Source: Candidatus Polarisedimenticolia bacterium (GTDB lineage: Bacteria > Acidobacteriota > Polarisedimenticolia > Gp22-AA2). Taken from it: a stretch of DNA of 64,000 nt. The translations under genes were made by a program, and so were the position numbers. Shown in pieces: positions 3,368 to 37,348 of the stretch. How positions within the stretch are numbered: position 1 is the stretch's first letter; every line of letters begins with the position of its first letter. The notes under the pieces are model-generated. The model had not been told where the DNA came from. It searched no databases and worked only from the letters and a program-made list of their open reading frames with translations. The DNA lies in NCBI GenBank assembly GCA_036001465.1, contig DASYUH010000013.1, positions 92,554 to 156,553 of the forward strand. The letters run 5' to 3'.

Positions 3368-4810
3368 ATGCCGGCGGGTCAGGGCCGCCCGTCCGGAACG
3401 GAGCTTCTCGGCGATGCTGTCCGCGTGAAGTCCTCCTCTTGGTACCGATTCGTCAGAGTTACTCTTCGCGTGAAACAGTCGGTTCTTGATCGTTGGGATC
3501 TCGCCGCTCTTCTCTGTCTCGCTGCGAGCTTCCTTCTCGTGGCGAATGTGGGGTTCAAACCAAAGCCGTTTGGCGACACGGACTTCCACATCGAAGCCAA
3601 GGCTCTCTCCGCGGCCCTCCGCGGCGAGATGCCCTGGACCAGCGTCGCCATGACGAAGGCTCCGGCCCCCGTCGTCTACTACGCGATTCCTTATCTGTTC
3701 ATCAAACAAGGTTCGTCCGACGACGACTATTGGCGCGTTGGCGTGTTCTGGACCGCACTGTGGATGGGCGTCTCCCTGCTGTTGCTGCGAAGAGCCGCCG
3801 CTCGCGTTGGAGGGACAACGGCCGGGCTCTTCGCAGTCGTCATCACGTTGCTCAACCCGTTCAACATCTACTACGCGTTTGGCATCAGCGCAGAGAACCC
3901 GGCGTATCTCGGCGCCATATTGATGATCGCCGCATGGTTCTGGGCGAACGACAAGACTCCCGCCGACAAGAGCTCCTGGTCCAGCGCGCTGGCATTGGCG
4001 CTCGGCACCACGGTGTTGATCCTCTCGAGGCCCAACAGTGCGTTGATGCTGCCGCTGATGGTGCTGGGCGCAGTCGTCCTGGCAAGACGTGGTGACCGCG
4101 CGGGTATCCTTCTCGGTCGCAGCGTTCTCGTCGTGGTGCTCGCCCTAGCGGTGACTCGGATGGTGATCGCGCAGCTTCCCGGCCGCCCGGAGATCGCCCG
4201 ACAGGGCTCGTATCTCGCTCACGTGATGTTCCACGGCAGCTTCCAGTACCGCACGGAGACGTGGGATTGGCGCTTCTGGGACATCAAGACCCGCCCGGAC
4301 AGTGTGGACTACATCACCTGGAGCGAAGAGCTCACGTCGCTGGAGCTCGAAGCTGGACGCAAGAACGTGCCGCTCGCGTCTCTCGAATATCAGTGGATTT
4401 GGAACGATTTCCTCAGAAATCCACTCCTCCGACTGAAGATGGTCGCGGTGCGGGCGCTATCGATCCATTTCGCTCGCGTCAACTCGGTCAGTCGTCAGAC
4501 CTTCAAGATTGGTCCTTGGGAAGGACCGGCCGCGTATTGGAGCGTTCATATCGCGATCAATGCGCTGAGCGTCCTCGTTCTTGCCTGCGCACTCATCTTC
4601 ACGTTCCACCACCCGGGAGGTCCCTGGTCGGTTTGGCCGATATGGGTGCCTTGGGTCGCACTGTTGGCGTTTCACACCCTGTTTTACGCCGAGCCGCGCT
4701 ATCTGTTGCCGACGCGGCCCGGCCTGATCGTCGGGGCTGCTGCGCTGATTTCCGGCGTCCTGTCACAGCGGCGCCGATCCAACGTCACGAAGAGCTCAGG
4801 ATCGATCTGA
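3368..4810 (+). CDS. Polytopic membrane protein, probably a GT-C-fold (ArnT/PMT-like) glycosyltransferase
   Basis: 480-aa ORF with at least 9 predicted hydrophobic helices and no soluble catalytic domain. GC is lower (about 60%) than its neighbours. The start is uncertain (ATG 3368 or in-frame GTG at about 3470). Family assignment comes from overall architecture only. Confidence 0.5.
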   Translation: MPAGQGRPSGTELLGDAVRVKSSSWYRFVRVTLRVKQSVLDRWDLAALLCLAASFLLVANVGFKPKPFGDTDFHIEAKALSAALRGEMPWTSVAMTKAPAPVVYYAIPYLFIKQGSSDDDYWRVGVFWTALWMGVSLLLLRRAAARVGGTTAGLFAVVITLLNPFNIYYAFGISAENPAYLGAILMIAAWFWANDKTPADKSSWSSALALALGTTVLILSRPNSALMLPLMVLGAVVLARRGDRAGILLGRSVLVVVLALAVTRMVIAQLPGRPEIARQGSYLAHVMFHGSFQYRTETWDWRFWDIKTRPDSVDYITWSEELTSLELEAGRKNVPLASLEYQWIWNDFLRNPLLRLKMVAVRALSIHFARVNSVSRQTFKIGPWEGPAAYWSVHIAINALSVLVLACALIFTFHHPGGPWSVWPIWVPWVALLAFHTLFYAEPRYLLPTRPGLIVGAAALISGVLSQRRRSNVTKSSGSI

Positions 4811-4915
4811 CCCGCCGGCGTTCATCGGACCTGTAGCCTGCGACCTCGGTGACGACGGCGAACGGCCTCGCCTTGACCTCGTCGAAGATGCGGCCAACGT
4901 ACTCGCCGAGGACAC

Positions 4916-5902
4916 CTAGCGCCCCGCCGCAGGGCGGCGCACACGGGCCTCAACCCCGTTCCCCCCGTATTCGCACCAGATCTCCACCCCGCCGATGCGC
5001 TCGAGAGCGCGGCGGATTTGGTCGCGAGTGCGGAAATGCTTGTACCAGTCCGTCAGCGAATCGTGCGTGTCGAGCAGCGACCATTGGCGCTGCAGATCGT
5101 CGTTGAGCGGCAGCGCGTGGTAGTAGGACAGCACCGGAGATACCCTGCTGAGGAGGGCCTGCGCCACTCGGCTTCGGCGGGCCGCCCGGTGCAGTGGGAA
5201 CAGCCACCGGACCAGGCGGTCGGTCCAGAGCATTCCCTGCTCGGGCGGCAGGTGGCGCAAGACGATGCGGAACAGCGGCGCCGTCTTGGTGAACTGTGAG
5301 AGAGTATAGGTGTAGTGGTCCAGAACGAGCCAACCGCCCGGCTTCACCTGGGCGTACAGTCGCGCCAGTGCCTCCTCGGGGCTGGGTGTGTGCTGCACGA
5401 CACCCAGGCAGAATACGATGTCGTACTGCGCGGGAGCGAAGGGCAGCGAGAGGATGTCCGCCTGGACGACGCGGTGCCGATCGTCCTGCGGGAAGTTCTC
5501 CTGGTTGGCCTCGACGGCGGAGCTCAAGTCCACCGAGGTGACGCAGGCACCCGTCGACAGCAGCACTTCGGTAAATCGTCCCGCCCCGCAACCCACCTCG
5601 AGCACGTGGGTCCTGCCGGGAGCCTGGAGCGCCCGCCAGAGGGACTCTCCCAGACAGCGCCGCGCCCGGTCACGGGAGATAGTCGTGCGGGTGTAGGAGT
5701 CGAGCTGCGTCCTGCGATGAACGTTCCACTGCAAGCCGAAGGCGTCCGCGTACCCTCGTTCGGGCACGAAGCGGGGAATGCCGGCCCGCTCGGCCCAGGC
5801 ATGGCCCCGGCGGCAGGCGAGTCCCGCCGCGGCTCGCTCGAGCGGCTGGGCGTCATCCGGGCAGACGAGGGCCGGCCAGGCATCCGTCAAGAGCGCCGCC
5901 AC
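4916..5902 (-). CDS. Class I SAM-dependent methyltransferase with a Trm112-like N-terminal segment
   Basis: SAM motif I VLEVGCGAGRFTEVL. Acidic motif DLS. Motif IIl YDIVFCLGVVQHTP. The N-terminus LVCPDDAQPLE...YADAFGLQWN resembles the degenerate zinc-ribbon/Trm112 fold seen ahead of some methyltransferases. The ORF track runs on to 6541 in a G/R/P-rich frame that overlaps capA, which is probably spurious. A GTG near 5902 is proposed as the start. Confidence 0.6.
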   Translation of the reverse strand: MAALLTDAWPALVCPDDAQPLERAAAGLACRRGHAWAERAGIPRFVPERGYADAFGLQWNVHRRTQLDSYTRTTISRDRARRCLGESLWRALQAPGRTHVLEVGCGAGRFTEVLLSTGACVTSVDLSSAVEANQENFPQDDRHRVVQADILSLPFAPAQYDIVFCLGVVQHTPSPEEALARLYAQVKPGGWLVLDHYTYTLSQFTKTAPLFRIVLRHLPPEQGMLWTDRLVRWLFPLHRAARRSRVAQALLSRVSPVLSYYHALPLNDDLQRQWSLLDTHDSLTDWYKHFRTRDQIRRALERIGGVEIWCEYGGNGVEARVRRPAAGR

Positions 5903-7044
5903 AACGCCGCGAGCCTGTGCATGGCGAACCGGCCGAGCATTACGAGGTGCTCCGGGCGCGCGCGCGACATGTTCGAGGTCAGCTCCCGCCAGTGACCTTT
6001 GCGAAGGTGAATCCAGAGCCAGCTCAAGAGGTTCCCGGTGTTCAGCGAGGCTCTCTGGCGGGTGAACGCCTCTCGATACCGATCCAGGCGGATGTCCAGG
6101 CTGACCGCCTCGAGATGATCGATGATCCGCCGCGCCTCCGTTTCGACCGCCGGCACGACGCGGTAATCGTCCGTCACCTGGATCGGCACCACGGCGATCG
6201 TGCGGACCCCTTCCTTGTCGATCTCCATGATGAAGATGGCGGATTCCCTCTGCTTTTCGGGCACCGGCGGGACGCCCAGCTCTCCCTCGAAGACATCTGC
6301 GACGAAGTTGCCGAGGTTGTAAACCGCCGCCCGTCCTCCTTCCACGCCATAGCCCTGGAGGACGTGGGCGTGGTGCATGAGGACGACATGCGCGCCGGCG
6401 GCCAGGAGGCGGTCGGCGATCTCCTTGAACTCCGGTTTCGGGTAGTCGAGCCACATCAACCCGATGTGGATCGAGATGATGACGCAATCGACGCGATCCC
6501 GCAGCGCCGCAACCGATCGCATCGCGAGCCCCTCGTCCCATTCGACGAAGCCGGGCACCTCGGGATCGTCCTGCCGCTGCAGCGTCCTGCCGAATCCCAG
6601 CAGGCCGATCCGCAAGCCCTGTGCCTCGATTTCGACGGGCTGCGACGCCTCTTCCTGCGTCCCACCGGCGCCCAGCGGAAGCATCCCCGCGGCCGCCACG
6701 ACGCGACGCGTCTCCTGCAGTCCGCCGGGACCGTACTCCAGGATGTGGTTATTGGCCAGCGACAGCACCGTGAACCCGGCGCGCGACAGAGGCCCGGCCA
6801 TCGCCGGGTCACCCCTGAAGAGCTCCCGTCCCGGTCGCGGGGCGCACAGCGGGGTCTCCAGATTGCCGAAGACGATGTCCCCCGAGCGCAGGATCGGAGC
6901 GACCGCGGCGAACGCTTCGTCCGCGCCGGCCGCTCCCGGGTAGCGCCGGCGCACGCCGCCGGAGAGCATCAGGTCGCCGACTGCGACCAGACGGCAGGAG
7001 GCGCCCGCGGGCGCCCCCGGACGGCGGTAGAGCAGACGCTCCAC
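5887..7044 (-). CDS. CapA-family protein (poly-gamma-glutamate synthesis CapA-like metallophosphoesterase)
   Basis: 385 aa. Calcineurin-like fold motifs VAVGDLML, GNLETPL, LANNHILEYG, ISIHIGLMW...VLMHHAHVLQGY. Confidence 0.75.
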   Translation of the reverse strand: MERLLYRRPGAPAGASCRLVAVGDLMLSGGVRRRYPGAAGADEAFAAVAPILRSGDIVFGNLETPLCAPRPGRELFRGDPAMAGPLSRAGFTVLSLANNHILEYGPGGLQETRRVVAAAGMLPLGAGGTQEEASQPVEIEAQGLRIGLLGFGRTLQRQDDPEVPGFVEWDEGLAMRSVAALRDRVDCVIISIHIGLMWLDYPKPEFKEIADRLLAAGAHVVLMHHAHVLQGYGVEGGRAAVYNLGNFVADVFEGELGVPPVPEKQRESAIFIMEIDKEGVRTIAVVPIQVTDDYRVVPAVETEARRIIDHLEAVSLDIRLDRYREAFTRQRASLNTGNLLSWLWIHLRKGHWRELTSNMSRARPEHLVMLGRFAMHRLAALWRRS

Positions 7045-7340
7045 CTAATGCCTCACAGCGGTCGTGGGGATCGGCATCAGCACAGTTGCCATCAAGGATT
7101 CACCAGGGCTTCCGCGGTTGCGAGGGCCTGAATATACCCCGGCGGCCGGTGTACGGCAATGCTCATTCCGATCACGGATACCGTTCCTTCCGGCCAGCAT
7201 GGCAACCCTAGCCAGGCGCTGGGTCGCCAACTATCTCAGGCGGTGGGAAGCGGTGGAGCGGGTCTCACAAGCATTGGAGCCAGGGGAAACCGGGCGCACG
7301 CCCGAACATGCAGTCCAGGGCCCGCACGGGTACTGATGCG

Positions 7341-9083
7341 TCAGTCTGCACGTTCGTAGATGTCGATGTTCGGTCCGGGCCTCTCGACGTCGTGGAAACC
7401 GGCGAAGGGCAAATAGAACGCGTCCTGTTGATCGAAGAAGTTGTCCTTCCGATCGAGTTCGGTCACGTGGAAGGACCTCGTACGTCTGTAGGATTCTTCC
7501 AATAGGCGTCCTATCCCGGCCGGGATCTCATTGCGCGTTGAAAGCGGTGACGAGGCCGTGATGATGTATCGGGGTCGATCATGTCTGATCTCATGGCCAA
7601 AAGCGAACTTGCGAGATTTCGGATCATAGGCCCATTCCTCGAACACCCGGATCTGCTTCGCCTCTTGATGATCGGCTAGGATGCGGTCCATCTCCGCCCT
7701 CATCTCCCCGATGGCACCGGACGCAGGCTCAGAGGTCCTCTCCAGGGATTCACGAGTTTCGGGCAGCCGCAGGCGCTCCCAGCCGCCGGTTTGATAGACG
7801 GAACTGTGTCCCTCGAGGTGAGCCTGTGCCCAGTTGGTGGCCAGGAGGCGACTATCGGGTCTGTCGAGAAGCGAGTTTGATCGGATTACGTTATGGGCCG
7901 AAGGGAAGACAATGAGGCCCGCGAGGGCCAGGGTCGCACCGTTCTTCAGATAGGAGGAACGACCCCGTGCAATGAGGTCGGCGAGGTCAATGACACTGAC
8001 GGCTGCCGCGATGCAGAGAAAAGGGACGACGGGAATCATGTACCTGAGGAACACGGTCAACCCTTTTCCCGCGATGGCGTAATAGACCATGGGAAAGGAC
8101 CAGAGGACGAGCGCGGTTCTCGGACTTCGGCGTGCGAAAATGAACAATCCGACCAGCGATGCGACCAGCAGGCTCCATCCAAGGCCGTGCCACAAGGTAA
8201 AGCGGAGGTGGTACCACCATCCCCTGCCTAGGTCGATGCGATCGCCCGAAGAGAGATGCCACGCCTCGTAGAGAACCCCGGAAAGGAACGTCCGGAAATC
8301 GATCAACGCGAACGGTGTCCCGGCCAGGAAGGCGAATACCATCCCAAGGACAAAGACCAAGATCCGTCTATCGATCAAGGACCCGAGCACGCTGACGTAC
8401 AACGGGCGGACAAGCGACACGTGGCACAAAAGGAGAGGGACGGCCAGAAAAAGACCACTGTACTTCGTGGACATGGCCAGTCCGGCGAAAATCCCGGCGA
8501 GCAGGTAATTCGTCCGAGTCGGATGAGCATGGATTCTGGATATGAACAGAACGGAGCACATGATCAGAAACGCCAGCGGTACGTCCGTGACGCCAAAGTG
8601 CGAGTCTCGGACATGGAGGTGTGTCAGGGCGAGAAAAAGTGCTGCGACGAGGCCCGTCCTCCGGTCGACGGAGCGCGCGCAAATGCGGTAGACGAGCCAG
8701 ACGGTCGCGATGCCGAGAGTTGCCGAAATGGTTCTGTCAATGAGGTAGAAGTTGGACGGATCGAGCGCGTATTCGGTGAGAAAGTCGGGTCGCGATGAAT
8801 ACCTTCCCGACAGGGTCCCGAGAAGGTAGTAGCAACCATACAAGAAGAACAGGACATACATGTAGAGCGTGGGATAGTTAAACACGTGCGGATTGAAATC
8901 GCCGGAACTGAAGCGAAGCGCCGTTCTGATCAGGTGAGCTTCGTCGGGCCGGCACTCCGGGTTCGGGAGCCCGAAGCCGATTCCCCAGAATCTTACGAAG
9001 GCGGCGACACACAGAACAGCGAGGAGCGCCAGGCGGTGCCCCGTCGAATTCGAGTGCGAGCCCTGGTCACGTTCCGTGGTCAT
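7341..9083 (-). CDS. GT-C-fold glycosyltransferase, family 39/83-like (ArnT / protein O-mannosyltransferase-like)
   Basis: Polytopic membrane protein. N-terminal loop RPDEAHLIRTALRF has a DE-type motif after TM1. Many TM helices, then a C-terminal soluble domain of about 180 aa. GC about 57%. The ATG at 9083 (MTTERDQ...) has a GAGG 10 nt upstream. The ORF track TTG is at 9137. Confidence 0.7.
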   Translation of the reverse strand: MTTERDQGSHSNSTGHRLALLAVLCVAAFVRFWGIGFGLPNPECRPDEAHLIRTALRFSSGDFNPHVFNYPTLYMYVLFFLYGCYYLLGTLSGRYSSRPDFLTEYALDPSNFYLIDRTISATLGIATVWLVYRICARSVDRRTGLVAALFLALTHLHVRDSHFGVTDVPLAFLIMCSVLFISRIHAHPTRTNYLLAGIFAGLAMSTKYSGLFLAVPLLLCHVSLVRPLYVSVLGSLIDRRILVFVLGMVFAFLAGTPFALIDFRTFLSGVLYEAWHLSSGDRIDLGRGWWYHLRFTLWHGLGWSLLVASLVGLFIFARRSPRTALVLWSFPMVYYAIAGKGLTVFLRYMIPVVPFLCIAAAVSVIDLADLIARGRSSYLKNGATLALAGLIVFPSAHNVIRSNSLLDRPDSRLLATNWAQAHLEGHSSVYQTGGWERLRLPETRESLERTSEPASGAIGEMRAEMDRILADHQEAKQIRVFEEWAYDPKSRKFAFGHEIRHDRPRYIITASSPLSTRNEIPAGIGRLLEESYRRTRSFHVTELDRKDNFFDQQDAFYLPFAGFHDVERPGPNIDIYERAD

Positions 9084-9434
9084 CCCGAAGCCTCGGATTC
9101 GGATGGAAGGGGGGCCATTGCGGCGCTCAGAAGTCAAATCGTAAGGGCGCAGCGACCGCGTACAGGGAATGGCAGGATGAGCGTCATCTTCTCGAATTCA
9201 TGGGAGCGGAAGGTCCCCATGCATAGATCGGCCGCGCGGACGCATCACGCCGGCCCCTACGAGGGGTGTCAGGCCGATGGCCATGATGGCCGTGCGTCGT
9301 TCCAGCGATCGCAAGGCTAGGACCATGCCGGCATTCTAGCACTGTCGGGGCCTTGGCCGAGATGGCCTATCCTGCGCGGCGATCGTCCCAAGACAGCCAT
9401 TGGCTGCGTGCGACGGGCCTTCCGCGCGAAGGGT

Positions 9435-9554
9435 CCGGTGGTCCTCATCGACTGCGGCCGGAAGAACAACCAGGTGTGCATGCTCCTGGAGAAGAGCGCG
9501 GAGGGCGGCCAGGGACATCGTCTTCAGGTTGCTGGTGAGGCCTGTCTTGGACAT
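9435..9554 (-). pseudogene. Composite ghost: a carA-internal fragment (plus strand, about 9435-9500) fused to a DUF4388 5'-end fragment (minus strand, about 9490-9554)
   Basis: 40 of 41 nt are identical to carA codons for PVVLIDCGRKNNQ (CCGGTGGTCCTCATCGACTGCGGCCG[G/C]AAGAACAACCAGG). The antisense side encodes MSKTGLTSNLKTMSLAAL, versus the live DUF4388 start MSMKGLTGNLKTMSLPDL. Confidence 0.55.
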
Positions 9555-9692
9555 CGCTCCTCAGGGGCGGTCCGGACGGGGCCGCGGAACGCCCGGTCCT
9601 GGTGGGGAATCACCGGGACCGGGGATGGTTGGCGATTGCATGCCCCGGGCAAACGTCGTATATTCTGAGACCCGGCGGACCCAAGTTACGCG

Positions 9693-10157
9693 ATGAACCC
9701 CTTGGCCAGGAAGGCCCTGCTCTTCGCCCTCTTCTCCCTGCTTCTGGGAGGGGAGACGGCCTACTTCGGGCGCGAGTGCGCCGCCACAGTCCAGCGACAG
9801 CGGGGCGAGCGGGCCTTCTTCTGGAACGATCACCGCACCTCGTGGGGCCACAATCGGGCTGCTCTCGCCTGGGGAAGCAACCCCGAGCGCCTGCGGCGGA
9901 AGAGACCGATCGACCTCCAGGCCCCGTCAGAGGATCCCCGCGAGAACCTGACCCCCGCCCTCATCGAGATCGATGCCGCGCGCCTTTTGGTCGCGCAGGA
10001 CGAGCGCGATTGCACCGTGGAGTTCCGGAAGAAGGCCATCGCGATCGACCCGTGCTCCTACGATGCCCGGTTCCTGCTCGGGCTCCTCGCCCTGAACCCT
10101 GGCGCGAGCGGCCACCGGGAGCAGTGCGCCAGCATGGCGCCGGGGACGGCACGATGA
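9693..10157 (+). CDS. Small secreted protein with signal peptide and TPR-like C-terminus
   Basis: 154 aa. N-terminus MNPLARKALLFALFSLLLGGETAYF looks like a signal peptide. C-terminus AIAIDPCSYDARFLLGLLALNPG is TPR-like. Its TGA overlaps the ATG of the downstream ligase-like gene (ATGA), which suggests translational coupling. Confidence 0.45.
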   Translation: MNPLARKALLFALFSLLLGGETAYFGRECAATVQRQRGERAFFWNDHRTSWGHNRAALAWGSNPERLRRKRPIDLQAPSEDPRENLTPALIEIDAARLLVAQDERDCTVEFRKKAIAIDPCSYDARFLLGLLALNPGASGHREQCASMAPGTAR

Positions 10158-12170: not shown

Positions 12171-12902
12171 ATGAACCTGCTTCGCCTGGCGCTCATTGTC
12201 CTGTACACCTTCGTGATCGGAACGATCACGATTGTCCTCTGTGTTCTGGTCCCTGGGGGTTCGACTCTGAGGCCGCTGGCGCGCCTCTGGTCCTGGCTGG
12301 TGCTGCGGACCTGCCGGGTGCGCTCCCGGGCCATCTACCATCCGCACCTGGATCCTGCCCGACCGAGCATTTACATCGCGAACCACCAGAGCCAGTTCGA
12401 CATCCCCGCGCTCGCACTGGCCATGAAATCCGATTTCCGGATGGTCTCCAAGCGAGAGCTCCTTTACGTGCCCGTTTTCGGTTGGGCTCTCTGGTTCGCG
12501 GGATTCGTCTTCATCGACCGCACCAACCGCGCCAAGGCGATCCAGAGCCTGGATCGGACGGCACGCATGATTCGCAAGGGAACCTCGGTCGTCGTGTTCG
12601 CAGAGGGCACGCGCAGCCCCGACCGCCGGCTCCTCCCCTTCAAGAAGGGAGGGTTCATCCTCGCGTTGCAGGCCGGCGTGCCGATCGTCCCCGTCTCCAT
12701 CCGAGGTGGACACGACGTCCTGCCCAAGGGCAGTCTGCGGATCCGGCCCGGCACCATCGAGGTAGTGTTCGGCGAACCGGTTCCGACCTCCTCCTATTCC
12801 CTGGAGACCAAGGACGATCTGATCGCCGCAGTGCGGGAGCGGATCACGGCGGGACTCGCTCAGACGCCGGACCTGTTCCGCGTCTCCACATCTGCTATTT
12901 GA
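12171..12902 (+). CDS. plsC: 1-acyl-sn-glycerol-3-phosphate acyltransferase family (PlsC/LPLAT)
   Basis: N-terminal TM helix, then HxxxxD catalytic motif (ANHQSQFD), FAEGTRS and PIVPVSI motifs. ATG at 12171 (MNLLRLALIVLY). Confidence 0.75.
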   Translation: MNLLRLALIVLYTFVIGTITIVLCVLVPGGSTLRPLARLWSWLVLRTCRVRSRAIYHPHLDPARPSIYIANHQSQFDIPALALAMKSDFRMVSKRELLYVPVFGWALWFAGFVFIDRTNRAKAIQSLDRTARMIRKGTSVVVFAEGTRSPDRRLLPFKKGGFILALQAGVPIVPVSIRGGHDVLPKGSLRIRPGTIEVVFGEPVPTSSYSLETKDDLIAAVRERITAGLAQTPDLFRVSTSAI

Positions 12903-14814: not shown

Positions 14815-14833
14815 GGATCGGTCCTTTACTTCA

Positions 14834-19289: not shown

Positions 19290-19296
19290 CGCCGGC

Positions 19297-23482: not shown

Positions 23483-23490
23483 CCCAAGGC

Positions 23491-26355: not shown

Positions 26356-26386
26356 AAGAACGTTCGCGGGACGGGCATCCGTTACG

Positions 26387-27313: not shown

Positions 27314-27470
27314 TGCCCGCATCATCGAGCCCTGGCAGGCGGCCTGAAGAGGCGGCCGCACGCGGGACACTGGAATGGGGAATGGTGGTGATCCCGGGGC
27401 CGGACCTGCGGAGACGGTAGAATAGGCGCAGGCCAGGGCTTTCGGTGCGTTGGGAGAGCGGGAACAGGCG

Positions 27471-29447: not shown

Positions 29448-30757
29448 GCCAGGGCACCCCCCTCTCCCTTATCTATCTACAAAACGGCAGCGGCACGGGA
29501 GGGGCCGGATTCAGCCTGGACGTCCTGCTGGCCCATCTGGACGCCGGCCGGTTCCGGCCGATCGTCTGGACCTGCGACGACGGACTCATGGTGCGGCGGT
29601 GGGAAGGGCGAGGGGCCCGGGTGGTGGTCCGCCGCATGCATCTCTTCGAGGGGCTCGACACGCACTTCGTGCAGGGCGCCATCGAACGCGATCCATCGGG
29701 ATGGCGCCGATCCAGCCTCCAGGCTCTCACGGCCGCCAGGGCTGCGGCCGCCCTGCCGGGCGAGATCGCCTTCCTGCGGCGCCTGCGGGCCCGTCAGGGG
29801 GTCGTCGTGCATGTGAACTCAATCGTCGCGTTGAGCGCGGGCCTTGCGGCTCGGCTCCTCGGCCTGCCGATCGTCTGGCATGTCCGCGAAATCCTCGCCC
29901 CGGGCGTCTGGGGGCGCATCGCCCGCCGGATCATCCTCTATTCGGCCTCCCGTATCGTCGCCGTGTCCGCTGCGGCCGCCGCCCCCTTTCAGGACGCGGG
30001 CGTTCCGGTGCAGGTCGTTCATAACGCGATCGAACTGAAGGCGTTCGATCCGTCCCTCGACGGCGCCCCCGTCCGCCGCGAGCTGGGTCTCCCCCCGGAC
30101 ACGCCCGTCGTCGGCTTCGTCGGGAGGCTGTTCCCGAGCAAGGGGACCTTCGATCTCCTACAGGCCATGTCAATCGTCTCCCGGGAGTTTCCCGGCGCTC
30201 ACCTCCTGATCGTGGGGGGGGACGATCCTCCGCAGGCCCACTCGTCAGGGGCGACCTGGAAAGGCAGGCTCCGCCGTCGTCTCGGTTTCGGGCAGGCGCC
30301 CGACTACCTGCCGCTCCTCCGGTCGGAGGCGGACCGTCTGGGCCTGGGGGACCGCGTCCATCTCCTCGGGCCGCGGCACGACACGCCCCGGCTCCTGGCG
30401 GCCATGGACGTCGTCGCGCTGCCGTCGCGCACGGAGGCGTTCGGCAGGACCATCATCGAGGCGATGGCCATGGCCAGGCCGGTCGTGTCCGTCGCCGTCG
30501 AGGGAATTCTCGATCTGATCCGGCACGACGAGAACGGGATCCTGATCCCGCCCCCCTCCCGGGTGGAGGATCTGGCCGTCGCCATCGCTGCGCTCCTCAA
30601 GGACCCGGGCCGCCGGGAGGCCCTGGGGCGGGAAGGTCGTCTATCCGTGGTCGATCGGTTCTCGGCGGAGCGTCACGCGCGGGCGATCATGGCCGTCTAC
30701 GAGGATCTGGCGGCCGGTCACATCGGACGCCAGGTCCAGATGCCGCGGGCGTATTGA
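29444..30757 (+). CDS. Glycosyltransferase family 4
   Basis: GTG at 29444 overlaps the paralog-4 stop. N-terminal domain SLIYLQNGSGTGGAGFS. C-terminal domain VHLLGPRHD...MDVVALPSRTEAFGRTIIEAMAMARPVVS. Confidence 0.8.
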   Translation: MSQGTPLSLIYLQNGSGTGGAGFSLDVLLAHLDAGRFRPIVWTCDDGLMVRRWEGRGARVVVRRMHLFEGLDTHFVQGAIERDPSGWRRSSLQALTAARAAAALPGEIAFLRRLRARQGVVVHVNSIVALSAGLAARLLGLPIVWHVREILAPGVWGRIARRIILYSASRIVAVSAAAAAPFQDAGVPVQVVHNAIELKAFDPSLDGAPVRRELGLPPDTPVVGFVGRLFPSKGTFDLLQAMSIVSREFPGAHLLIVGGDDPPQAHSSGATWKGRLRRRLGFGQAPDYLPLLRSEADRLGLGDRVHLLGPRHDTPRLLAAMDVVALPSRTEAFGRTIIEAMAMARPVVSVAVEGILDLIRHDENGILIPPPSRVEDLAVAIAALLKDPGRREALGREGRLSVVDRFSAERHARAIMAVYEDLAAGHIGRQVQMPRAY

Positions 30758-31656
30758 AACCGCAGGCGCAGGTCGCCGAGCGGCAGCGCCCCCAGGATCG
30801 ACTTGATCAGGCCGATGAGCACCGTGGCCGGGACGTCCACCACCTGGAGCGCGAGGCGGTAGAGTCGCGCAGGCCGGCGGCCGAAGCAGCGCTCGAGGTA
30901 GCGCTGAATACTGATGGCTCCGTTCACCAGTGTCCGGACCGGCGCCTGGCGGGCGCTCCGCCCTCCCAGGTGGGCAACCCTGGCTTCCGGCACGAAGTAG
31001 ATCTTCCATCCATCGCGGCGGATTCGGAAGCAGAGATCCAGGTCCTCGCCGCAGTGGATGAAGCATTCGCCGAACCCTCCCCCCTTCTCGAACAGGTCGC
31101 GGCGGAGCAGCATGGCGGCCCCCGAAATCGCCTGGACCTCCTGGACCACCTGGGGGTCGTAGGGTGAGACCAGCCGCTTCCTGAACCATGGTCCTACGAG
31201 AGGGAGCTTCTGGAGCCTGAACACGTCGATGGCCACGAGCCGCGCCGCGGTCGGCTGGACGCGGGCCGAGGTCTCCTGGAAGGTGCCGTCCTCGTTCCAC
31301 AGGGAGGGGCCCAGCATGCCCGCATCCGGGTGCTCCTGAAGGAAACGGATCAGGATCCCGAGGGCGCCCGGCATCACGATCGTATCCGGGTTCAGGAGCA
31401 GGACGAATCGTGCCGTCGCCAGGCGGAGGCCCAGGTTGCTCGCCCGGGCGAACCCCAGGTTGGCGCCGTTGACGATCACCTGGACCGATGGAAATTCGCC
31501 GCGCAGCATCGCGACGCTGTCGTCCGAGGACGCGTTGTCGACCACGATCAACTGCAGCGACAGGCTCGACGCGTCGGCGACCAGCGAGCGGATGCACTGC
31601 CGGAGGAGCGGCGCCACATTCCAGCTGACGATGATGACGGAGACGTCGGGGATCAT
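30718..31656 (-). CDS. Glycosyltransferase family 2
   Basis: 312 aa. VSVIIVSWN, VVDNASSDDS (DxD-type), LLLNPD, HCGEDLDLCFR. Convergent with the GT4 and overlaps it by about 40 nt. Confidence 0.8.
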   Translation of the reverse strand: MIPDVSVIIVSWNVAPLLRQCIRSLVADASSLSLQLIVVDNASSDDSVAMLRGEFPSVQVIVNGANLGFARASNLGLRLATARFVLLLNPDTIVMPGALGILIRFLQEHPDAGMLGPSLWNEDGTFQETSARVQPTAARLVAIDVFRLQKLPLVGPWFRKRLVSPYDPQVVQEVQAISGAAMLLRRDLFEKGGGFGECFIHCGEDLDLCFRIRRDGWKIYFVPEARVAHLGGRSARQAPVRTLVNGAISIQRYLERCFGRRPARLYRLALQVVDVPATVLIGLIKSILGALPLGDLRLRFQYARGIWTWRPM

Positions 31657-31668
31657 GAGCGTCCGGTC

Positions 31669-32628
31669 CTAGGTCGAGGGTCGAAGCACCGCGTGCCCGT
31701 ACTCGGGAATCGACGTCATCGGGCGGTGGGGAGGATCCAGCTCGCAAAGATCATAACCGACGCTCGCCAGGAAACCGCGCAGGGCCGCTTCGGTCGTGTC
31801 GAACAGCCGCCAAGCAAAGGAGTGCACCTCGAGGAAGATCCACGGACGGGCCGTCCGGAGCGTCTCGGCGGCGCCCTGCAGGGCCCAGAGCTCGGCCCCC
31901 TCCACGTCGATCTTCATGACTGAGGGCGGCGGCCCCCCGGCACGGACGAACTCGTCGAGCCGGATCGCGCAGATCGGCACCCAGGACGGTTGCGCGTCTT
32001 CCTGAGGATAGACGTTGCGCAACGCGTTGCCCGACGCCCAGGTCGTGGCGAGGGTCGGCCAGACGGGCATCGACACCACGCCGGCAGTGTTGGAGCAGGC
32101 TGCCTCCATGACCCGGATGCGATCGTCGAGGCCGTTCAGGGCGCAGTGTCGCCTGAGCAGACGGACCGTCTCGGGAACCGGTTCGAAGGCGACGACGCGC
32201 CCGTGCTCCTCCACGCGCCGGCAGGCGGCGATGGCGTACCAGCCGACGAAGCTGCCCACGTCATAGAACACGTGTCCCGGCTCGAGGTGCGCCAGCAGGG
32301 CGGCCAGCAGCCGATCGTCGCGCGGCACGGGGTAGCCGACCAGGAAATCGAAGTCCAGCCACAACGACTCCTCAACCGACGGCAGCTTGCAGCGGGCACG
32401 GCCGCGTCGCAGCGCGCGCTCCACGGCGAGGCTTGCCGCCTTGACGTTCCGGGCGCAGCGCCGTGCCGGCGCCTCGAGGGTTGAGCCTCGAATCCATGCG
32501 GGCATGGCCCAACGCGCGACCCATCCCGGACGGTTCATCGCTTCGTCACCTGGAACTCCCCGTTCCCTTTGCGCCCGGCGCGGAGCCTCAGCAACCCTCC
32601 GATGACCACGCGCGCATCGTCGATTCAC
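31669..32628 (-). CDS. FkbM-family methyltransferase
   Basis: Motifs FYDVGSFVGWY, VVAFEPVPE, MKIDVEGAEL. The 5' end is uncertain. The first 30-60 codons are R-rich and abut the flippase-fragment repeat. ATG candidates lie at about 32538 and 32502. Confidence 0.65.
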   Translation of the reverse strand: MNRRCARGHRRVAEAPRRAQRERGVPGDEAMNRPGWVARWAMPAWIRGSTLEAPARRCARNVKAASLAVERALRRGRARCKLPSVEESLWLDFDFLVGYPVPRDDRLLAALLAHLEPGHVFYDVGSFVGWYAIAACRRVEEHGRVVAFEPVPETVRLLRRHCALNGLDDRIRVMEAACSNTAGVVSMPVWPTLATTWASGNALRNVYPQEDAQPSWVPICAIRLDEFVRAGGPPPSVMKIDVEGAELWALQGAAETLRTARPWIFLEVHSFAWRLFDTTEAALRGFLASVGYDLCELDPPHRPMTSIPEYGHAVLRPST

Positions 32629-32867
32629 AGGCCGTGCAACTGGGCGGCGTAGATTCCAATCCCGAGAGTGCGCCCCGTCATGACCTGCACGATCCGCGGC
32701 CCCTCCCTTCCAAGCTCGGCTAGGCGCTCGAAAACGCCTGCCCAGGCCAGAAGGGGCACCCCCATGACGACGGCAGCCGCGAGGACCCTGGCGGCGAATA
32801 GGGTATCACCCGGGCCCCAAACTGTCCCGACCCCTCGGAGCACCAGGAGAAGCAGGATGAGGAGGAA
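32625..32867 (-). pseudogene. Duplicated 3'-end fragment of the MurJ/Wzx-like flippase gene (repeat copy A)
   Basis: Encodes ...LLILLLLVLRGVGTVWGPGDTLFAARVLAAAVVMGVPLLAWAGVFERLAELGREGPRIVQVMTGRTLGIGIYAAQLHGL*. This is about 65% identical to the C-terminus of the intact flippase at 35834-36077. It shares an exact 28-mer GCGGCGAATAGGGTATCACCCGGGCCCC (32791-32818 versus 36000-36027). Confidence 0.6.
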
Positions 32868-32879
32868 ACCACGCACGTA

Positions 32880-33108
32880 CGCCTCTCCCGAGGCTCTCGC
32901 GGATACCATCGTGTCCGTCATGAAGAATGACGCAAAACGTGCGGCAATCGGGCGCACTGCCCGCCATGCGGTGTTGCAGCGGTTCTACGCGGCGTATCGC
33001 GCGGATCGAATGATGGCCGTCGGCTCCGGCTCGAAGGCAGGCGTGACACCTGGGGGAACCGATCCTAGCCGCCTCAAAGCGCTCCTGAACCTTGGCTCAA
33101 ATCTCTGA
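32880..33108 (+). pseudogene. GT4 glycosyltransferase 3'-end fragment
   Basis: Encodes ...PEALADTIVSVMKNDAKRAAIGRTARHAVLQRFYAAYRADRMMAV, which parallels the C-terminus of the GT4 at 29444-30757 (VEDLAVAIAALLKDPGRREALGREGRLSVVDRFSAERHARAIMAV). No N-terminal domain is present. Confidence 0.35.
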
Positions 33109-34783
33109 CGAAGATGGAATACGCCCCGAACGTCGCCGAGTGACGATAGTTTCGCGTGAGATAGGCATCGAGTAGAGCCGCTCCCTCTTCCCGGTTGGCT
33201 GCGGTCGTCGACTCGGCATCGGCTCCCGACCAGAGAACGACGTACCGCACATCGCGTGCTGCAAGATCCTTCGCAATCTCACCCTGTACGCGCTCCGTGG
33301 TAGCGACGCCGGGGTGCAGCTCGTGATATCGGGTGGCGCTGTCCCTGTCCGCGAGAAAATAGAAGAGCACATCGTTTGTCTCGACCCTGCGGTGTGTCCA
33401 GAGTCCCACAAAGATACGCTCGCCCGGTCCCACGTGATCAACGATGTATCCGACAGCGGCCAATTCGTCCGGGTCGGCCACCGCGTACCCCAACCGACGC
33501 TCCGGCAAGGTCGACCAATCCCCGCTCCGCGGGAGAGCTTCCGTCGGAGGTCCCAGGATCACGCGTGCCTTGACGTAGACGGGCTCGACGAGCATGGGGA
33601 GTAACAGAACCAGCGCCGCGACTGCCGGCAGATAGGACGCCCCGCCGGAAGGTCGCTTCAGGATCCCCTGCCCCAGAGGCAGGAGGAGGAGCACGGGGAC
33701 GGAGAAGACAAGCAGATGAGGCAGGTCCGCTCGGACGAGTATTTGAGGAAACAGAGCTCCCGCGAGCAGCGTAAGGTGCAGGATTGTCCATCGTCGGGCC
33801 CGGTCGAGGGAGTCCTGAACGTGAGGTCGCCCCACAAGGAGCAACATGGACAGCACAAACACCAGCGGAACGACATAGTAGGGAAGGGCGGTCAGTGAGT
33901 ACGAGAGATACGAGCGAAGCGAGAGAGAACCATTGAGGAAGAGAGAGAGGCCCGGCGGACGAGGATACGGGAGGGCGCGCACGGAGGGAAATACATGGGC
34001 CGGGAAGATGATCAGATCCTCTATTACTTCCTTCAGAGGAACGGCTATCACGAGACAGAGTGCGACTGGGAGCACGATAATCGCAACCCCTAACACATAG
34101 AGGAGGATTCCCTGCATCCTGCTGGCAACCCGCGCCCATGAGCCCGACTCGGTGACAGTTCCGGTGGATGCCGAGAAAGTCAGGACAATCAGTCCTGCGA
34201 GGGACGCGTAGAATCCCACGTCATGACGGAATACTGCTGTAGCTCCGGCAGCCATACCTCCGAGAAGCAGTCTGAGCGGGCTCGTCGGATCGATGCTGTG
34301 GCGCTCGAGCAGCAGGACGGATGTCATGCTGAGAAGAAGGGCTATCAGCACGGAGGAGCCGAAGGGCGAGAACCTACCGAGCCAGACGGTCCCCACGAGC
34401 CAGCACAGGAGGGCTGTGCTCCGGGAGACGAAGGGCGCCGTGATTCTCCAGGCGAGCAGCACCAAGGATGAGCGGATGAGGATGTTCGAAACACGCTCCA
34501 CCAGGAGGGACGGCCCGAACAGCTTGAAGAGTGCCGCCAGGAGGTAGAACTGGCCGGGCGGGTACATCGTCCACCAGTCCCGGTAAGGGAGTTCTCCTCT
34601 CAACACCCTGAGGGCCCCGTAGACGATGACACCTTCGTCATACGGATTGGCGTGGAGGGTCACATCGGGAAGAAAGTAAAGCACCGAAAGTATCGCCAGC
34701 GATGGATAGAGCCACGCCTCATTCAGGGGCTGCCTCCACCTCCGGGTGCGTTCCAGCCGTAGATCCACCAGGCGCGCCTCCAC
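33074..34783 (-). CDS. GT-C-fold glycosyltransferase, ArnT/PMT-like (family 39/83-like)
   Basis: 569 aa. First periplasmic loop YDEGVIVYGALRVLRGELPYRDWWTMYPPGQFYLLAALFKLFG is the ArnT/PMT DE-motif region. 10 or more TM helices, then a C-terminal soluble domain. GC about 58-60%. Confidence 0.65.
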   Translation of the reverse strand: MEARLVDLRLERTRRWRQPLNEAWLYPSLAILSVLYFLPDVTLHANPYDEGVIVYGALRVLRGELPYRDWWTMYPPGQFYLLAALFKLFGPSLLVERVSNILIRSSLVLLAWRITAPFVSRSTALLCWLVGTVWLGRFSPFGSSVLIALLLSMTSVLLLERHSIDPTSPLRLLLGGMAAGATAVFRHDVGFYASLAGLIVLTFSASTGTVTESGSWARVASRMQGILLYVLGVAIIVLPVALCLVIAVPLKEVIEDLIIFPAHVFPSVRALPYPRPPGLSLFLNGSLSLRSYLSYSLTALPYYVVPLVFVLSMLLLVGRPHVQDSLDRARRWTILHLTLLAGALFPQILVRADLPHLLVFSVPVLLLLPLGQGILKRPSGGASYLPAVAALVLLLPMLVEPVYVKARVILGPPTEALPRSGDWSTLPERRLGYAVADPDELAAVGYIVDHVGPGERIFVGLWTHRRVETNDVLFYFLADRDSATRYHELHPGVATTERVQGEIAKDLAARDVRYVVLWSGADAESTTAANREEGAALLDAYLTRNYRHSATFGAYSIFVRDLSQGSGAL

Positions 34784-34853
34784 AGCCTCGGTAGGTCAAT
34801 CTTCCTGCTTCTAAACCCGATCGCTGGTCCTTCGAGCGTTCGGTCTGGGTCGT

Positions 34854-35420
34854 TTACCCTCGACAGCCATTCCTGCGGAGCACCACCGTGCCCTTTTCAC
34901 TCGGGATGCGTTCGACATCGAGGGCGACGAATTCGTGCAGCCAGCGACCAAGGACGATCGCCTCGTCTTCGCGACTCCCATCGTCGAGGACGACCACGGC
35001 GCCCGGACTCAGTGTCTCGACGATCAGGGGAAGCGCCGGATACCGAACCAACCTGCGCGCCTGTCCATGCTGGAGGGGGCCATCCACGATCAGCACGTCG
35101 ATCGGAGCGAACTTCGCCAGAGCCGTGGTGTCATACCATTCCCAGGTCCGCGGTCCCAGCGCCACGGACCGGAGCGGGGCGTGGACAACCCTCGCGACAT
35201 CCGCGAGTCCGTGATCCTCCAGGTACTCCGTCGGCAGCCTCGCGTAGCGCTCCTCCTGCTCGAGCGACAGGATTCGACCCTGGCCCACCTCCCTGAGACA
35301 GGAGGCGGCAATCAGCGTGGACACACCGCTGCCCGCTTCCACGATCAGGCCAGGTCTGTGCCGGCGGATCAGGGTGACCAGGTTGGTTGCAAAGTCCGGA
35401 GAGATGGCGGCGGCTCTCAT
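34854..35420 (-). CDS. Class I SAM-dependent methyltransferase (Methyltransf_24 / TylF-MycF-like)
   Basis: 188 aa. LIVEAGSGVSTL (motif I). VLIVDGP...VVVLDD. Confidence 0.6.
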   Translation of the reverse strand: MRAAAISPDFATNLVTLIRRHRPGLIVEAGSGVSTLIAASCLREVGQGRILSLEQEERYARLPTEYLEDHGLADVARVVHAPLRSVALGPRTWEWYDTTALAKFAPIDVLIVDGPLQHGQARRLVRYPALPLIVETLSPGAVVVLDDGSREDEAIVLGRWLHEFVALDVERIPSEKGTVVLRRNGCRG

Positions 35421-35764
35421 GGGCGGCAGTGGGTGGGTGGATCTTCAGGGACACGAAAAGCGACGGGAGCGCTTCCATCTGACGGTAATTCGCCGTGGGG
35501 TTGGTCGCGCTGTTCAGCACGATGCTCTGGATCCGACGGTAGATTTCAATCTGGGTTGTCAGGATGATGATCAGGGCGAACACGATGGAGCACTCAAGGG
35601 ACCAGTCTGGAACCAACCACCGCGTGAGGGACGAGCCGACGATGACGAGCAGGAGAAGGCCGACAATGCAGACGACGTCTTTCCTCGAAAGGCTCATCGG
35701 ATCGGTCCTTCCTTCGCAGTCGCAGCGGGCATGGATCTCGAGGCTCGGAACGAGGAGAACACGT

Positions 35765-37348
35765 TCATGGCCGCCGAACCAAACCGGTGGCGGACGAGAG
35801 GACCCGCGCCAAAATGTCACGCGCCTCATCGACGCGCAGAAGGTGCAGAAGGGCGAGATAGGTTCCAACTCCGAGCGCGAGTCCCGACATGACCTGAATG
35901 ATCCGCGGCCCCTCTTTCCCCAGATCAGCGAGGTTCCCGAAAAACCCTGCCCACACCAGAAGGACCGCCCCCATGATGGTGGCGGACACGAGAACCCTCG
36001 CGGCGAATAGGGTATCACCCGGGCCCCGGATCGCCCCGACCTCCCGGCGCACCAGGGGAATGAGGACGAGGAGGGAGACGAGCGACACGGCGGTCGTGGC
36101 GAGGGCTATTCCGGCAAGGCCGAACGGCTTGACCAGGAGTGAATTCAATACGGCATTCGCCGCAATGGCGCCCGCAGAGGACCAGGCGAGCGCGGCGAGA
36201 CAGCGCCGCGCGAACAGAACTCGAGCCAGGATGACCTGATGGCCCATGAAAAGGATTTCGGGTGCATAACAGGCGATGAGCCGCGCCACCATCGCGGTCG
36301 ATTCGGGAGGGAATGCGCCCCGCTCGAAGAGGAGGCGCGCCAGCGGGGTGCCGAACGTCAGGGCTCCGGCACACAAGGGCGCGGTCAGGATGAGCATGTG
36401 ACGCTGGCTCGACCGGAGGATCCCGGCGAGCTCCCCCCGGCCAGCCTGCGCCGCGGCCGCCAGTCGCGGGAAGACGACCTCGGCGAGAGAGAGGGACGTC
36501 AGCAATTCCGCGTTGGAGATGATGACGAAGGCGAACCCCAGAGTCGTGATGCTGCCGGACGGCAGGAAGGACGCGAAGGCATTGTCCACCAGGAGATTGA
36601 TCGTTCCGGTGTTCGCGGCGAGGCTCATCGGCAGGAACGCGACCCAGAAGTCCCGCCGGTGCTCCGCGTGCAAGCCTCCGGCTTCCGCCTGGGGGGAGAA
36701 TCCCGCAGGGTCGCGGAGCATTCGGGCGGCGGCCAGTGAGAGCAGCCCGACCGCGATGACCGCGCCCAGGAGCGATCCGAGCGGCAGGGCGAAAATCCCC
36801 AGCCGGCCTACCAGGAGAACCAAGACGATCACGGACACCAGGTTGATCAGGACGTGCGTGAGGTTCGATACCCCGAAGCGGCCACGGACCTCGAACAGGC
36901 AGCGCGTCACCGTGAAGTAGACGCCTCCGGCCAGCCCGAAAATTGAGATGCGCAGCAGGCTGGCGCTCAGCGCGGCACGGTCGGGTGTGAACCCCGGTGC
37001 AATCAAGGCGGTGAAGTGGCGCGCTCCGGCGAGAACGACCAAAATGCACGGGGTGAGCCACAGCGTCACCTGCCAGAGAGTCCGGCGGGCGAAGCGTTTC
37101 TGTCCTGAAATCCCGTCCCGACGACCAACCGCAGCCAGCGAGACGAGCAGATTGCCGTACAGGCCGCCCATCAGGAACGTGGAGATGAGGTTGGGGATAG
37201 TCTGGGCCACCAGGTAACAGTCCTTCGCCACGCTGGTCCCGAAATAGGTCGCCGAGAGCATCCCGAGGGCCAGCGCGAGACCGGCGTTCGTCAGGCGGCA
37301 CGCCGAAACGACAAGAGTGGCGCGGAACGCGCTGGCGTTCTGGCTCAC
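35765..37348 (-). CDS. MurJ/MviN-family (MOP superfamily) flippase, Wzx-like
   Basis: 527 aa with 12-14 TM helices. N-terminal region YFGTSVAKDCYLVAQTIPNLISTFLMGG matches the MurJ family pattern. The C-terminal 80 aa are duplicated at 32625-32867. Confidence 0.8.
   Translation of the reverse strand: MSQNASAFRATLVVSACRLTNAGLALALGMLSATYFGTSVAKDCYLVAQTIPNLISTFLMGGLYGNLLVSLAAVGRRDGISGQKRFARRTLWQVTLWLTPCILVVLAGARHFTALIAPGFTPDRAALSASLLRISIFGLAGGVYFTVTRCLFEVRGRFGVSNLTHVLINLVSVIVLVLLVGRLGIFALPLGSLLGAVIAVGLLSLAAARMLRDPAGFSPQAEAGGLHAEHRRDFWVAFLPMSLAANTGTINLLVDNAFASFLPSGSITTLGFAFVIISNAELLTSLSLAEVVFPRLAAAAQAGRGELAGILRSSQRHMLILTAPLCAGALTFGTPLARLLFERGAFPPESTAMVARLIACYAPEILFMGHQVILARVLFARRCLAALAWSSAGAIAANAVLNSLLVKPFGLAGIALATTAVSLVSLLVLIPLVRREVGAIRGPGDTLFAARVLVSATIMGAVLLVWAGFFGNLADLGKEGPRIIQVMSGLALGVGTYLALLHLLRVDEARDILARVLSSATGLVRRP
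35834..36077 (-). repeat. Repeat copy B (live 3' end of the flippase gene), direct repeat of 32625-32867
   Basis: See copy A. The two copies bracket a lower-GC segment of about 3 kb. Confidence 0.6.

Follow-up and report, generated by a model that had tools for sequence, protein, structure and literature searches.

The 64,000-nucleotide stretch analysed here (the window), from a Candidatus Polarisedimenticolia bacterium, carries a dense set of glycan genes between positions 3368 and 37348. We found that this interval consists of lineage-specific glycan blocks set into a conserved Acidobacteriota envelope backbone, as read directly from family and fold assignments, intact motifs in the AsnB-type amidotransferases, synteny, variability among relatives and mosaic scars. 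Glycan-related families account for 17 of the roughly 22 genes in the interval, a density far beyond chance, and all 17 are full-length, intact open reading frames (ORFs) with catalytic motifs conserved where checked. Several gene pairs are translationally coupled, with overlaps of 4-16 nt. Additionally, the identical sequence was recovered in several independent metagenome assemblies, with JGI and Logan contigs matching the window at 100% identity. Taken together, the blocks and the backbone cassette may encode a strain-variable Wzx/Wzy-type surface heteropolysaccharide, either O-antigen-like or exopolysaccharide (EPS)-like, with uronamides, methylation and decoration by GT-C glycosyltransferases (GTs), a reading for which we judge the chances to be about even.

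Because the window is 62-72% G+C, genes were called from third-position GC content (GC3) and then scanned with Pfam and NCBIfam models, covering all ORFs of the 64-kb window. Reading was continued leftward for 11.2 kb on JGI contigs, for a total of about 75 kb. For comparison, we read about 35 kb of the locus of a 71% relative (L177) and 23-kb loci around a 55% (L004) and a 70% (L179) relative, and placed the window proteins on 80 related Acidobacteriota loci.

Across these 80 loci the backbone order is DUF4388, acyl-CoA dehydrogenase, thiolase, an outer-membrane fusion protein, one or more variable slots, PlsC and MlaE/F/D. It continues past Mla with a nucleoside diphosphate (NDP)-sugar dehydrogenase, an epimerase, a UDP-glucose dehydrogenase, a further epimerase, a small GT2 and ManC. 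The backbone genes in the window are:

3-203, minus strand: N-terminus of a WecC/TviB-like nucleotide-sugar 6-dehydrogenase (first 67 residues, cut by the window edge)
142-2862, minus strand: phospholipid-transport proteins MlaD, MlaF and MlaE, retained in 17-23 related loci
12171-12902, plus strand: PlsC-type acyltransferase, conserved in 28 related loci
14834-17965, minus strand: 1043-aa outer-membrane fusion protein, domains assigned from an AlphaFold2 (AF2) model and Foldseek
18039-19289, plus strand: thiolase
19297-20469, plus strand: acyl-CoA dehydrogenase
37962-39110, plus strand: DUF4388/PatA_N protein, marking the right border

The block genes occupy three slots. Slot 1, from the fusion protein to PlsC, holds a single amidotransferase; slot 2, from PlsC to MlaE, holds six genes (3368-11578); and slot 3, from the acyl-CoA dehydrogenase to DUF4388, holds eleven genes and one gene fragment (20515-37348). 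An earlier reading of this DNA by a model, the first-pass annotation, had described one glycan locus of about 34 kb. This is refuted by synteny, which shows mosaic blocks within a backbone that includes the fusion protein, thiolase, acyl-CoA dehydrogenase and PlsC; the last three, non-glycan genes inside the interval, had been omitted. In contrast, the gene classes it claimed (GT-C, GT4, GT2, flippase, Wzy/WaaL, methyltransferases, CapA, AsnB and fusion) were all confirmed at their coordinates by hidden Markov model (HMM) scans. The contents of the three slots, with methyltransferases dependent on S-adenosylmethionine abbreviated as SAM, are:

3368-4810, plus strand: probable GT-C 'a', with weak Pfam matches and multiple hydrophobic segments (GC3 0.78)
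4916-5902, minus strand: class I SAM methyltransferase (Methyltransf_11, Pfam)
5887-7044, minus strand: PGA_cap (CapA-like) protein of metallophosphoesterase fold (E 2e-55), overlapping the methyltransferase gene by 16 nt
7341-9083, minus strand: GT-C 'b', PMT_2/PMT-type (E about 1e-14; GC3 0.72)
9693-10157, plus strand: 154-aa secreted protein with no family assigned, translationally coupled to Wzy_C
10154-11578, plus strand: Wzy_C family protein, polymerase or ligase (PF04932, E 6.5e-23)
12895-14814, minus strand: AsnB-type glutamine amidotransferase 1, beside the outer-membrane protein and conserved there in close relatives
20515-21654, plus strand: GT4 'a' (Pfam/NCBIfam)
21641-23482, plus strand: AsnB-type amidotransferase 2 (Pfam/NCBIfam and motifs)
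23491-25419, minus strand: AsnB-type amidotransferase 3 (Pfam/NCBIfam and motifs)
25675-25950, plus strand: DDE transposase remnant that matches the rve core at E 1.1e-4, short of the gathering score
26387-27313, plus strand: SAM methyltransferase (Methyltransf_23/11; GC3 0.76)
27450-29447, plus strand: AsnB-type amidotransferase 4 (Pfam/NCBIfam and motifs)
29345-30757, plus strand: GT4 'b' (Pfam/NCBIfam)
30718-31656, minus strand: GT2 (Pfam/NCBIfam)
31669-32628, minus strand: FkbM-family methyltransferase (Pfam/NCBIfam)
32611-32957, minus strand: 3' remnant of another MurJ-like gene (110-codon ORF)
33074-34783, minus strand: GT-C 'c', divergent PMT_2-type, 569 aa with a C-terminal soluble domain, assigned by family and fold (GC3 0.71)
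34854-35420, minus strand: Methyltransf_24 methyltransferase (Pfam)
35765-37348, minus strand: MurJ-family flippase of the multidrug/oligosaccharidyl-lipid/polysaccharide (MOP) superfamily (PF03023 MurJ, E 1.9e-53)

The slots differ sharply between relatives. In the 70% relative, DUF4388 directly adjoins the acyl-CoA dehydrogenase and the 17-kb right block is wholly absent; AsnB1 is the only block gene of the window that is present, and the PlsC-MlaE slot contains only a GtrB-sized GT2 and a 479-aa protein without a Pfam match. The slot set of the 71% relative comprises a PMT_2 protein, a GFO/ADH fusion, two GT4 enzymes, a methyltransferase, DUF362 and CapK_C, and that of the 55% relative comprises deacetylases, an AMP-ligase, GT4 enzymes and one AsnB. 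Distant relatives also house non-glycan genes in the slot. Thus, the region shows the variable content between conserved flanks that characterizes a Wzx/Wzy cluster.

The blocks additionally carry the marks of exchange. The three GT-C genes and two methyltransferase genes have a GC3 of 0.71-0.78, compared to 0.85-0.92 for the backbone. Within the MurJ relic, a 255-nt copy (32611-32865) is 76% identical to positions 35820-36074 of the intact flippase gene; relic and intact gene flank the genes for GT-C 'c' and the Methyltransf_24 protein, an arrangement suggestive of cassette insertion or exchange at this point. The rve remnant sits in a 1-kb non-coding gap (25420-26450) between AsnB3 and the methyltransferase gene, and large non-coding gaps in the interval measure 590-1030 nt. 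A possible TPEQAW tail of the remnant occurs in another frame, and a tblastn search with the transposase-like ORF against plasmids gave no match. Some 10.5 kb beyond the left window edge, an internally deleted CapA/PGA_cap relic was found (L095, 20548-20811); it is an 87-aa ORF joining N- and C-terminal pieces of a CapA/PGA_cap paralog and looks like a pseudogene.

We considered the thiolase and the acyl-CoA dehydrogenase as glycan-lipid tailoring enzymes and rejected this because both are conserved backbone genes in relatives without the blocks. The genes for thiolase, acyl-CoA dehydrogenase, GT4 'a' and AsnB2 are co-directional (18039-23482, plus strand; gaps of 7, 144 and -14 nt), and with this layout the inserted glycan genes may be read through from the backbone lipid-metabolism operon.

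The four AsnB proteins each have GATase_7 and Asn_synthase domains and share 36-40% pairwise identity. All four keep the Met-Cys-Gly start (Cys2 nucleophile), the glutamine-binding residues and the SGGxDS PP-loop. Being intact in motifs at this level of divergence, they appear to be old, functional paralogs, and judging by these motifs all four are probably active as glutamine-dependent amidotransferases. The best NCBIfam model for each is TIGR03108 (XrtA/PEP-CTERM amidotransferase), at 392-563 bits against a cut-off of 816.9. The nearest solved structure, 7ylz, is a hydroxyamidotransferase, indicating that the family also acts on carboxylates other than aspartate. In Porphyromonas gingivalis, genetic evidence shows that the AsnB-like WbpS (PGN_1234) is needed for glucuronamide formation, and TIGR03108 includes the homologues of this enzyme from PEP-CTERM loci (PMC7468200). 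By analogy, the best-supported function for the four paralogs would be conversion of a uronic acid to a uronamide, because two uronic-acid-forming dehydrogenases adjoin. Similar to WbpS, the proteins found here are two-domain AsnB enzymes with an N-terminal Cys and TIGR03108 as best model, encoded in a glycan locus beside uronic-acid-forming enzymes. Unlike the Wbp/Vim pathway, with its single copy, there are four divergent copies here and no WbpB/D/E genes were seen.

Those dehydrogenases belong to a cassette that begins at the left edge of the window. The gene at 3-203 is its first member, continuing outside, and a 100% identical JGI protein (P0062) carries the name UDP-GlcNAc dehydrogenase. 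JGI contigs L095 and L096, which are 99.98% identical to window positions 1-10044 and 100% identical to 1-4353, respectively, run through the edge. Left of MlaD they encode the WecC/TviB-like dehydrogenase, a short-chain dehydrogenase/reductase (SDR) epimerase, a TuaD-like UDP-glucose dehydrogenase (554 bits) and a TviC-like 4-epimerase, followed by a 227-aa GT2, a ManC-like nucleotidyltransferase, a second Wzy_C, a PrsT-like tetratricopeptide repeat (TPR) protein, an stp2-like GT4 and another GT2. Relatives conserve this series of genes as far as the second Wzy_C, and distant ones still have the first two to four. A search for relatives with the GT4 of L095 retrieved nothing but GT4 proteins that share at most 37% identity with it. 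Thus, the reported lack of nucleotide-sugar genes was an artefact of the window edge: two NDP-sugar 6-dehydrogenases, two SDR epimerases and a ManC-like gene stand directly after MlaD. Four independent Logan assemblies (L087-L090) break 580-590 nt past the left edge, inside the first dehydrogenase gene, and there may be strain heterogeneity at that point.

The 227-aa GT2 (L095, 14485-15168), about 4.5 kb past the left edge and conserved in relatives, has its best matches to AglJ, PpgS, ArnC and a dolichyl-phosphate-hexose transferase, all below the cut-offs. This small GT2, a putative polyprenyl-phosphate-sugar synthase, lends direct support to the earlier suggestion that the GT-C enzymes use polyprenyl-phosphate sugars made elsewhere.

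Three GT-C enzymes had been claimed, and two of them, at 7341-9083 and 33074-34783, are well founded. GT-C 'c' itself has no direct Pfam match; its family numbers 4863 cluster representatives, and PMT_2 was matched by 29 of 31 sampled members. The protein keeps the N-Y-D-E-G loop motif, and its AF2 model (pLDDT 85, pTM 0.88) matches only GT-C enzymes: OST/STT3, AftA, AglB, DPY19, ArnT, Pmt4 and PglB. GT-C 'b' aligns to this 569-aa family with an hhalign probability of 91% and with the acidic loop motifs in register. The gene at 3368-4810 (public gene call from 3539) is weakly supported and can be called a probable GT-C: its Glyco_transf_22 match scores 24.9 bits (gathering score 23.8), the DUF2142 and PMT_2 matches do not reach their cut-offs, and hhalign gave no link to the 569-aa family. 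Thus, the GT-C fold transferase typical of Arn/Rgt/Gtr-type systems is present. Neither the three GT-C proteins nor the two Wzy_C proteins had a usable match in PDB sequence searches.

The remaining membrane components agree with a Wzx/Wzy-type cluster, which has a MOP-superfamily flippase and a Wzy_C protein; both are encoded in the window, with the second Wzy_C copy outside it. The flippase scores 199.6 bits against the MurJ equivalog cut-off of 235.6 (TIGR01695) and is a MurJ-family rather than a Wzx-family protein.

From these genes we infer substrates, a step order and a possible acceptor. The adjacent dehydrogenases and epimerases would supply UDP-(N-acetyl)hexuronic acids, and a repeat unit would be assembled on a polyprenyl carrier by the GT4 and GT2 enzymes. 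The four WbpS-like AsnB proteins would convert uronic carboxylates to uronamides with glutamine-derived ammonia, and the four methyltransferases would methylate the glycan. The MurJ-like MOP protein would then flip the unit across the inner membrane, where the Wzy_C proteins would carry out polymerisation or ligation, and the three GT-C enzymes would attach side sugars in the periplasm from a polyprenyl-phosphate-sugar donor made by the small GT2. The initiating transferase would be encoded elsewhere in the genome. The first-pass annotation had likewise proposed a methylated and possibly amidated glycan, made on a polyprenyl carrier with the last steps in the periplasm, and a glycan tailored by amidation and methylation in this way is still the most reasonable reading.

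Several observations weigh against a Wzx/Wzy-type polysaccharide. The roughly 75 kb read from this genome yielded no priming transferase, chain-length regulator or outer-membrane polysaccharide export (OPX) protein, and none turned up in the loci read in the 71%, 55% and 70% relatives either. Specifically, no priming transferase of PF02397 or PF00953 type occurs among the ORFs of the window or in the 11 kb leftward, which a cluster of this kind need not contain. Likewise, the HMM check of all window ORFs bore out the earlier statement that priming enzyme, Wza and Wzc are missing there, and OPX (Poly_export) and tyrosine kinases of the polysaccharide co-polymerase (PCP)-2a type, which mark group 1/4 capsule or EPS export (Wza/Wzc), were found neither in the left extension nor in the three relatives' loci. 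The Wzy_C proteins could be polymerase, ligase or O-oligosaccharyltransferase, the MurJ-like protein could be the housekeeping lipid II flippase, and GT-C 'a' is identified by weak matches. Every subfamily-level NCBIfam match is below its curated cut-off. Additionally, the blocks may serve more than one product, and the Polarisedimenticolia glycan is predicted here from its genes.

Wzx/Wzy O-antigen clusters normally lack a priming enzyme, Wzz and Wza/Wzc; the wecA gene of E. coli lies in the enterobacterial common antigen cluster, and lipopolysaccharide leaves the cell via Lpt. Similar to the O-antigen clusters of E. coli and Salmonella, the region places a variable GT block, a MOP flippase, Wzy_C and sugar-nucleotide genes between conserved flanks and, as in those clusters, the priming enzyme, Wzz and export machinery would be encoded elsewhere. 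The GalNAcA-amide O-antigens of Francisella and Pseudomonas aeruginosa are also alike in that AsnB-like amidotransferases amidate hexuronic acids, as predicted for the proteins found here. In contrast to O-antigen clusters, the blocks here are split by backbone lipid and outer-membrane genes, they hold four AsnB, four methyltransferase and three GT-C genes, and the flippase is of the MurJ family, not Wzx (Polysacc_synt). Given O-antigen clusters lacking primers, WbpS-dependent uronamides (PMC7468200) and clusters with two AsnB genes (PMC9012009), the claim that the locus matches no textbook system was overstated.

The most intriguing element of the region is the conserved outer-membrane fusion protein. 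Its sequence is identical to that of a protein from a metagenome-assembled genome of a Candidatus Polarisedimenticolia bacterium. From its N-terminus it consists of a signal peptide, a PslG-like TIM barrel with a beta-sandwich, a LolA-like domain and an Omp85/TamA-like C-terminal beta-barrel ending in Phe. In the AF2 model (pLDDT 77), the N-terminal half matches PslG (Foldseek, 5bx9 and 9g17; E 1.5e-14, TM-score on the target 0.62-0.64) and the barrel matches TamA/BamA (E about 1e-9), so both halves of what had been described as a hydrolase-porin fusion are borne out. PslG is a hydrolase of the Psl EPS. Compared with PslG and the TamA/BamA barrels, the domains here are fused in one 1043-aa protein with the LolA-like domain between them, and unlike Omp85-family barrels the protein has no POTRA domains. 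In contrast to PslG, a GH39-like enzyme, it has lost the canonical N-E-P motif with the acid/base Glu after strand 4 and has I-A-D-A-P-N instead. This position varies across the family (WDEPN, WQDPN, GRAPN) and is degenerate in many members; from these motifs, the PslG-like domain may bind glycan rather than cleave it. A tblastn search of GTDB species genomes found more than 450 relatives, almost all in Acidobacteriota (Polarisedimenticolia, Thermoanaerobaculia, metagenome-assembled genomes of Terriglobia, and strain Mor1), and members are always syntenic with thiolase, DUF4388 and/or Mla.

The fusion protein is central to the first alternative, an XrtA/PEP-CTERM-style secreted EPS for which it would act as outer-membrane exporter and trimmer in place of Wza/Wzc. 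The best NCBIfam models point this way, being TIGR03108 for the four AsnB proteins, TIGR03097 for Wzy_C, TIGR03088 for the GT4 enzymes and TIGR02917 for the TPR protein, as do the pairing of a PslG-like domain with a C-terminal beta-barrel and the DUF3473-type deacetylases, AMP-binding ligase and FkbH-like gene beside the fusion protein in relatives. PEP-CTERM EPS loci with two asparagine-synthetase genes are known, and XrtA/PEP-CTERM loci (Haft 2006), among them the clusters of Zoogloea and Aquincola (PMC9012009), share with our region an amidotransferase, a Wzy_C 'ligase', an stp-type GT4, a PrsT-like TPR protein and more than one asparagine-synthetase gene. However, every marker model scored far below its cut-off: besides the TIGR03108 scores given above, TIGR03097 reached 73.8 bits against 188.1, TIGR03088 81-195 against 409 and TIGR02917 75 against 312. 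Unlike those loci, the roughly 75 kb contains no exosortase, PEP-CTERM protein, EpsB-type transferase, PCP or OPX that we could find. The fusion protein is also conserved beside Mla, thiolase and DUF4388 in distant relatives without the window's glycan blocks, and its glycosidase motif varies, reading IADAPN here and WDEPN in some relatives. We regard this alternative as unlikely.

A second alternative, which we consider distinctly unlikely, gives the leading part to the backbone. DUF4388, the fusion protein, PlsC, Mla, the uronic-acid cassette, the polyprenyl-phosphate-sugar synthase, Wzy_C and the TPR protein would form an undescribed Acidobacteriota envelope pathway. The GT-C enzymes would build a uronic-acid-rich glycan or glycolipid in the periplasm and the fusion protein would export it, with no WbaP/WecA primer, Wzc or Wza, and strain-to-strain differences in the product would arise from the variable AsnB, methyltransferase and GT blocks. 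Across the region as a whole, all components come from known families, and multi-AsnB EPS clusters (PMC9012009) and uronamide O-antigens are already described. The region is unusual in its number of tailoring genes and in their insertion into an outer-membrane/lipid backbone in an uncultured lineage; it is not a new kind of system.

Rather improbable, in our judgement, is decoration without a polymer of its own, with the GT-C enzymes moving single sugars (e.g. galacturonic acid (GalA) or GalNAcA) from polyprenyl-phosphate donors onto existing lipid A/core, polymer or proteins, as in Arn/Rgt/Gtr systems, and the cytoplasmic GT, AsnB and methyltransferase genes belonging to a separate pathway. 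In the Rgt system, rgtE makes bactoprenyl-phosphate-GalA and the GT-C enzymes encoded by rgtD and rgtF transfer GalA; the Ugd-like dehydrogenase, TviC-like 4-epimerase and small GT2 beside Mla/PlsC mirror this rhizobial route (PMC7663294). ArnT/PMT_2-like GT-C enzymes beside uronic-acid synthesis genes are common to both, together with a small GT2 that here would make the polyprenyl-phosphate sugar. A PMT_2 GT-C directly adjoins the fusion protein in the 71% relative, and the GtrB-sized GT2 and 479-aa protein of the 70% relative occupy the same slot. Unlike Arn/Rgt/Gtr systems, however, the region has three different GT-C enzymes and no dedicated small flippase: Pfam gave no GtrA or ArnE/F type, and the only small membrane ORF (32625-32957) is the MurJ fragment. 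The small GT2 is below every equivalog cut-off, the acceptor is left unspecified, and neither the co-directional GT4-AsnB units nor the presence of MurJ-like and Wzy_C genes in the same blocks is explained.

Very unlikely is a reading with no single product, in which horizontally acquired glycan genes have piled up at a recombination hot spot, some of them decaying, and contribute to several unrelated glycans or to none. The scars (transposase remnant, MurJ fragment, CapA remnant), the heterogeneous GC3, the long non-coding gaps and block content that is wholly different between 55-71% relatives would fit, but the intactness of all 17 glycan genes, the translational coupling of several pairs and the recovery of identical sequence in independent assemblies argue against it.

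Three further candidates were rejected: a lasso-peptide or ribosomally synthesised peptide cluster (cyclase NF033535 180-232 against 525, MslH-like epimerase NF038314 51.6 against 700, glutaminase domains intact and no B protein found), a peptidoglycan amidation locus (which leaves the GT4, GT2, GT-C and Wzy_C genes unexplained) and a poly-gamma-glutamate capsule (CapBCA; PGA_cap is present alone, with no CapB or CapC).

Acidobacteriota are among the most abundant bacteria of soil and sediment, and to our knowledge almost nothing is known of their surface glycans. If the Wzx/Wzy-type reading is true, Polarisedimenticolia would diversify their surface by swapping tailoring-gene blocks into fixed slots of a conserved outer-membrane neighbourhood, in parallel to the O-antigen and capsule serotype variation of pathogens. 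The region supplies concrete candidates for uronamide-forming enzymes and flags a widespread, uncharacterised outer-membrane fusion protein as a candidate glycan or glycolipid exporter.

The DUF4388 protein at the right border carries an MshEN-type cyclic di-GMP-binding motif (NF053729, 52.9 bits; cut-off 38), which hints at cyclic di-GMP control of something in this neighbourhood. Beyond it the right flank is housekeeping, with carAB, tgt/queA/queC, fusA, an Asp/Asn-tRNA ligase, a miaB-like gene, pgpA, ribF, tmk, holB and an MsbA-like ATP-binding cassette (ABC) protein; no Rfam families or tRNA genes were found in the window. Between carA and a class IV aminotransferase lies a gene for a 223-aa secreted proline-rich protein with no Pfam family (43720-44391, plus strand). 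The queuosine genes form a set on the minus strand (47172-50730) that begins with tgt (47172 to about 48250) and continues with queA, queC and a QueE-like radical SAM gene; tgt is overlooked by simple ORF filters because of overlapping shadow ORFs.

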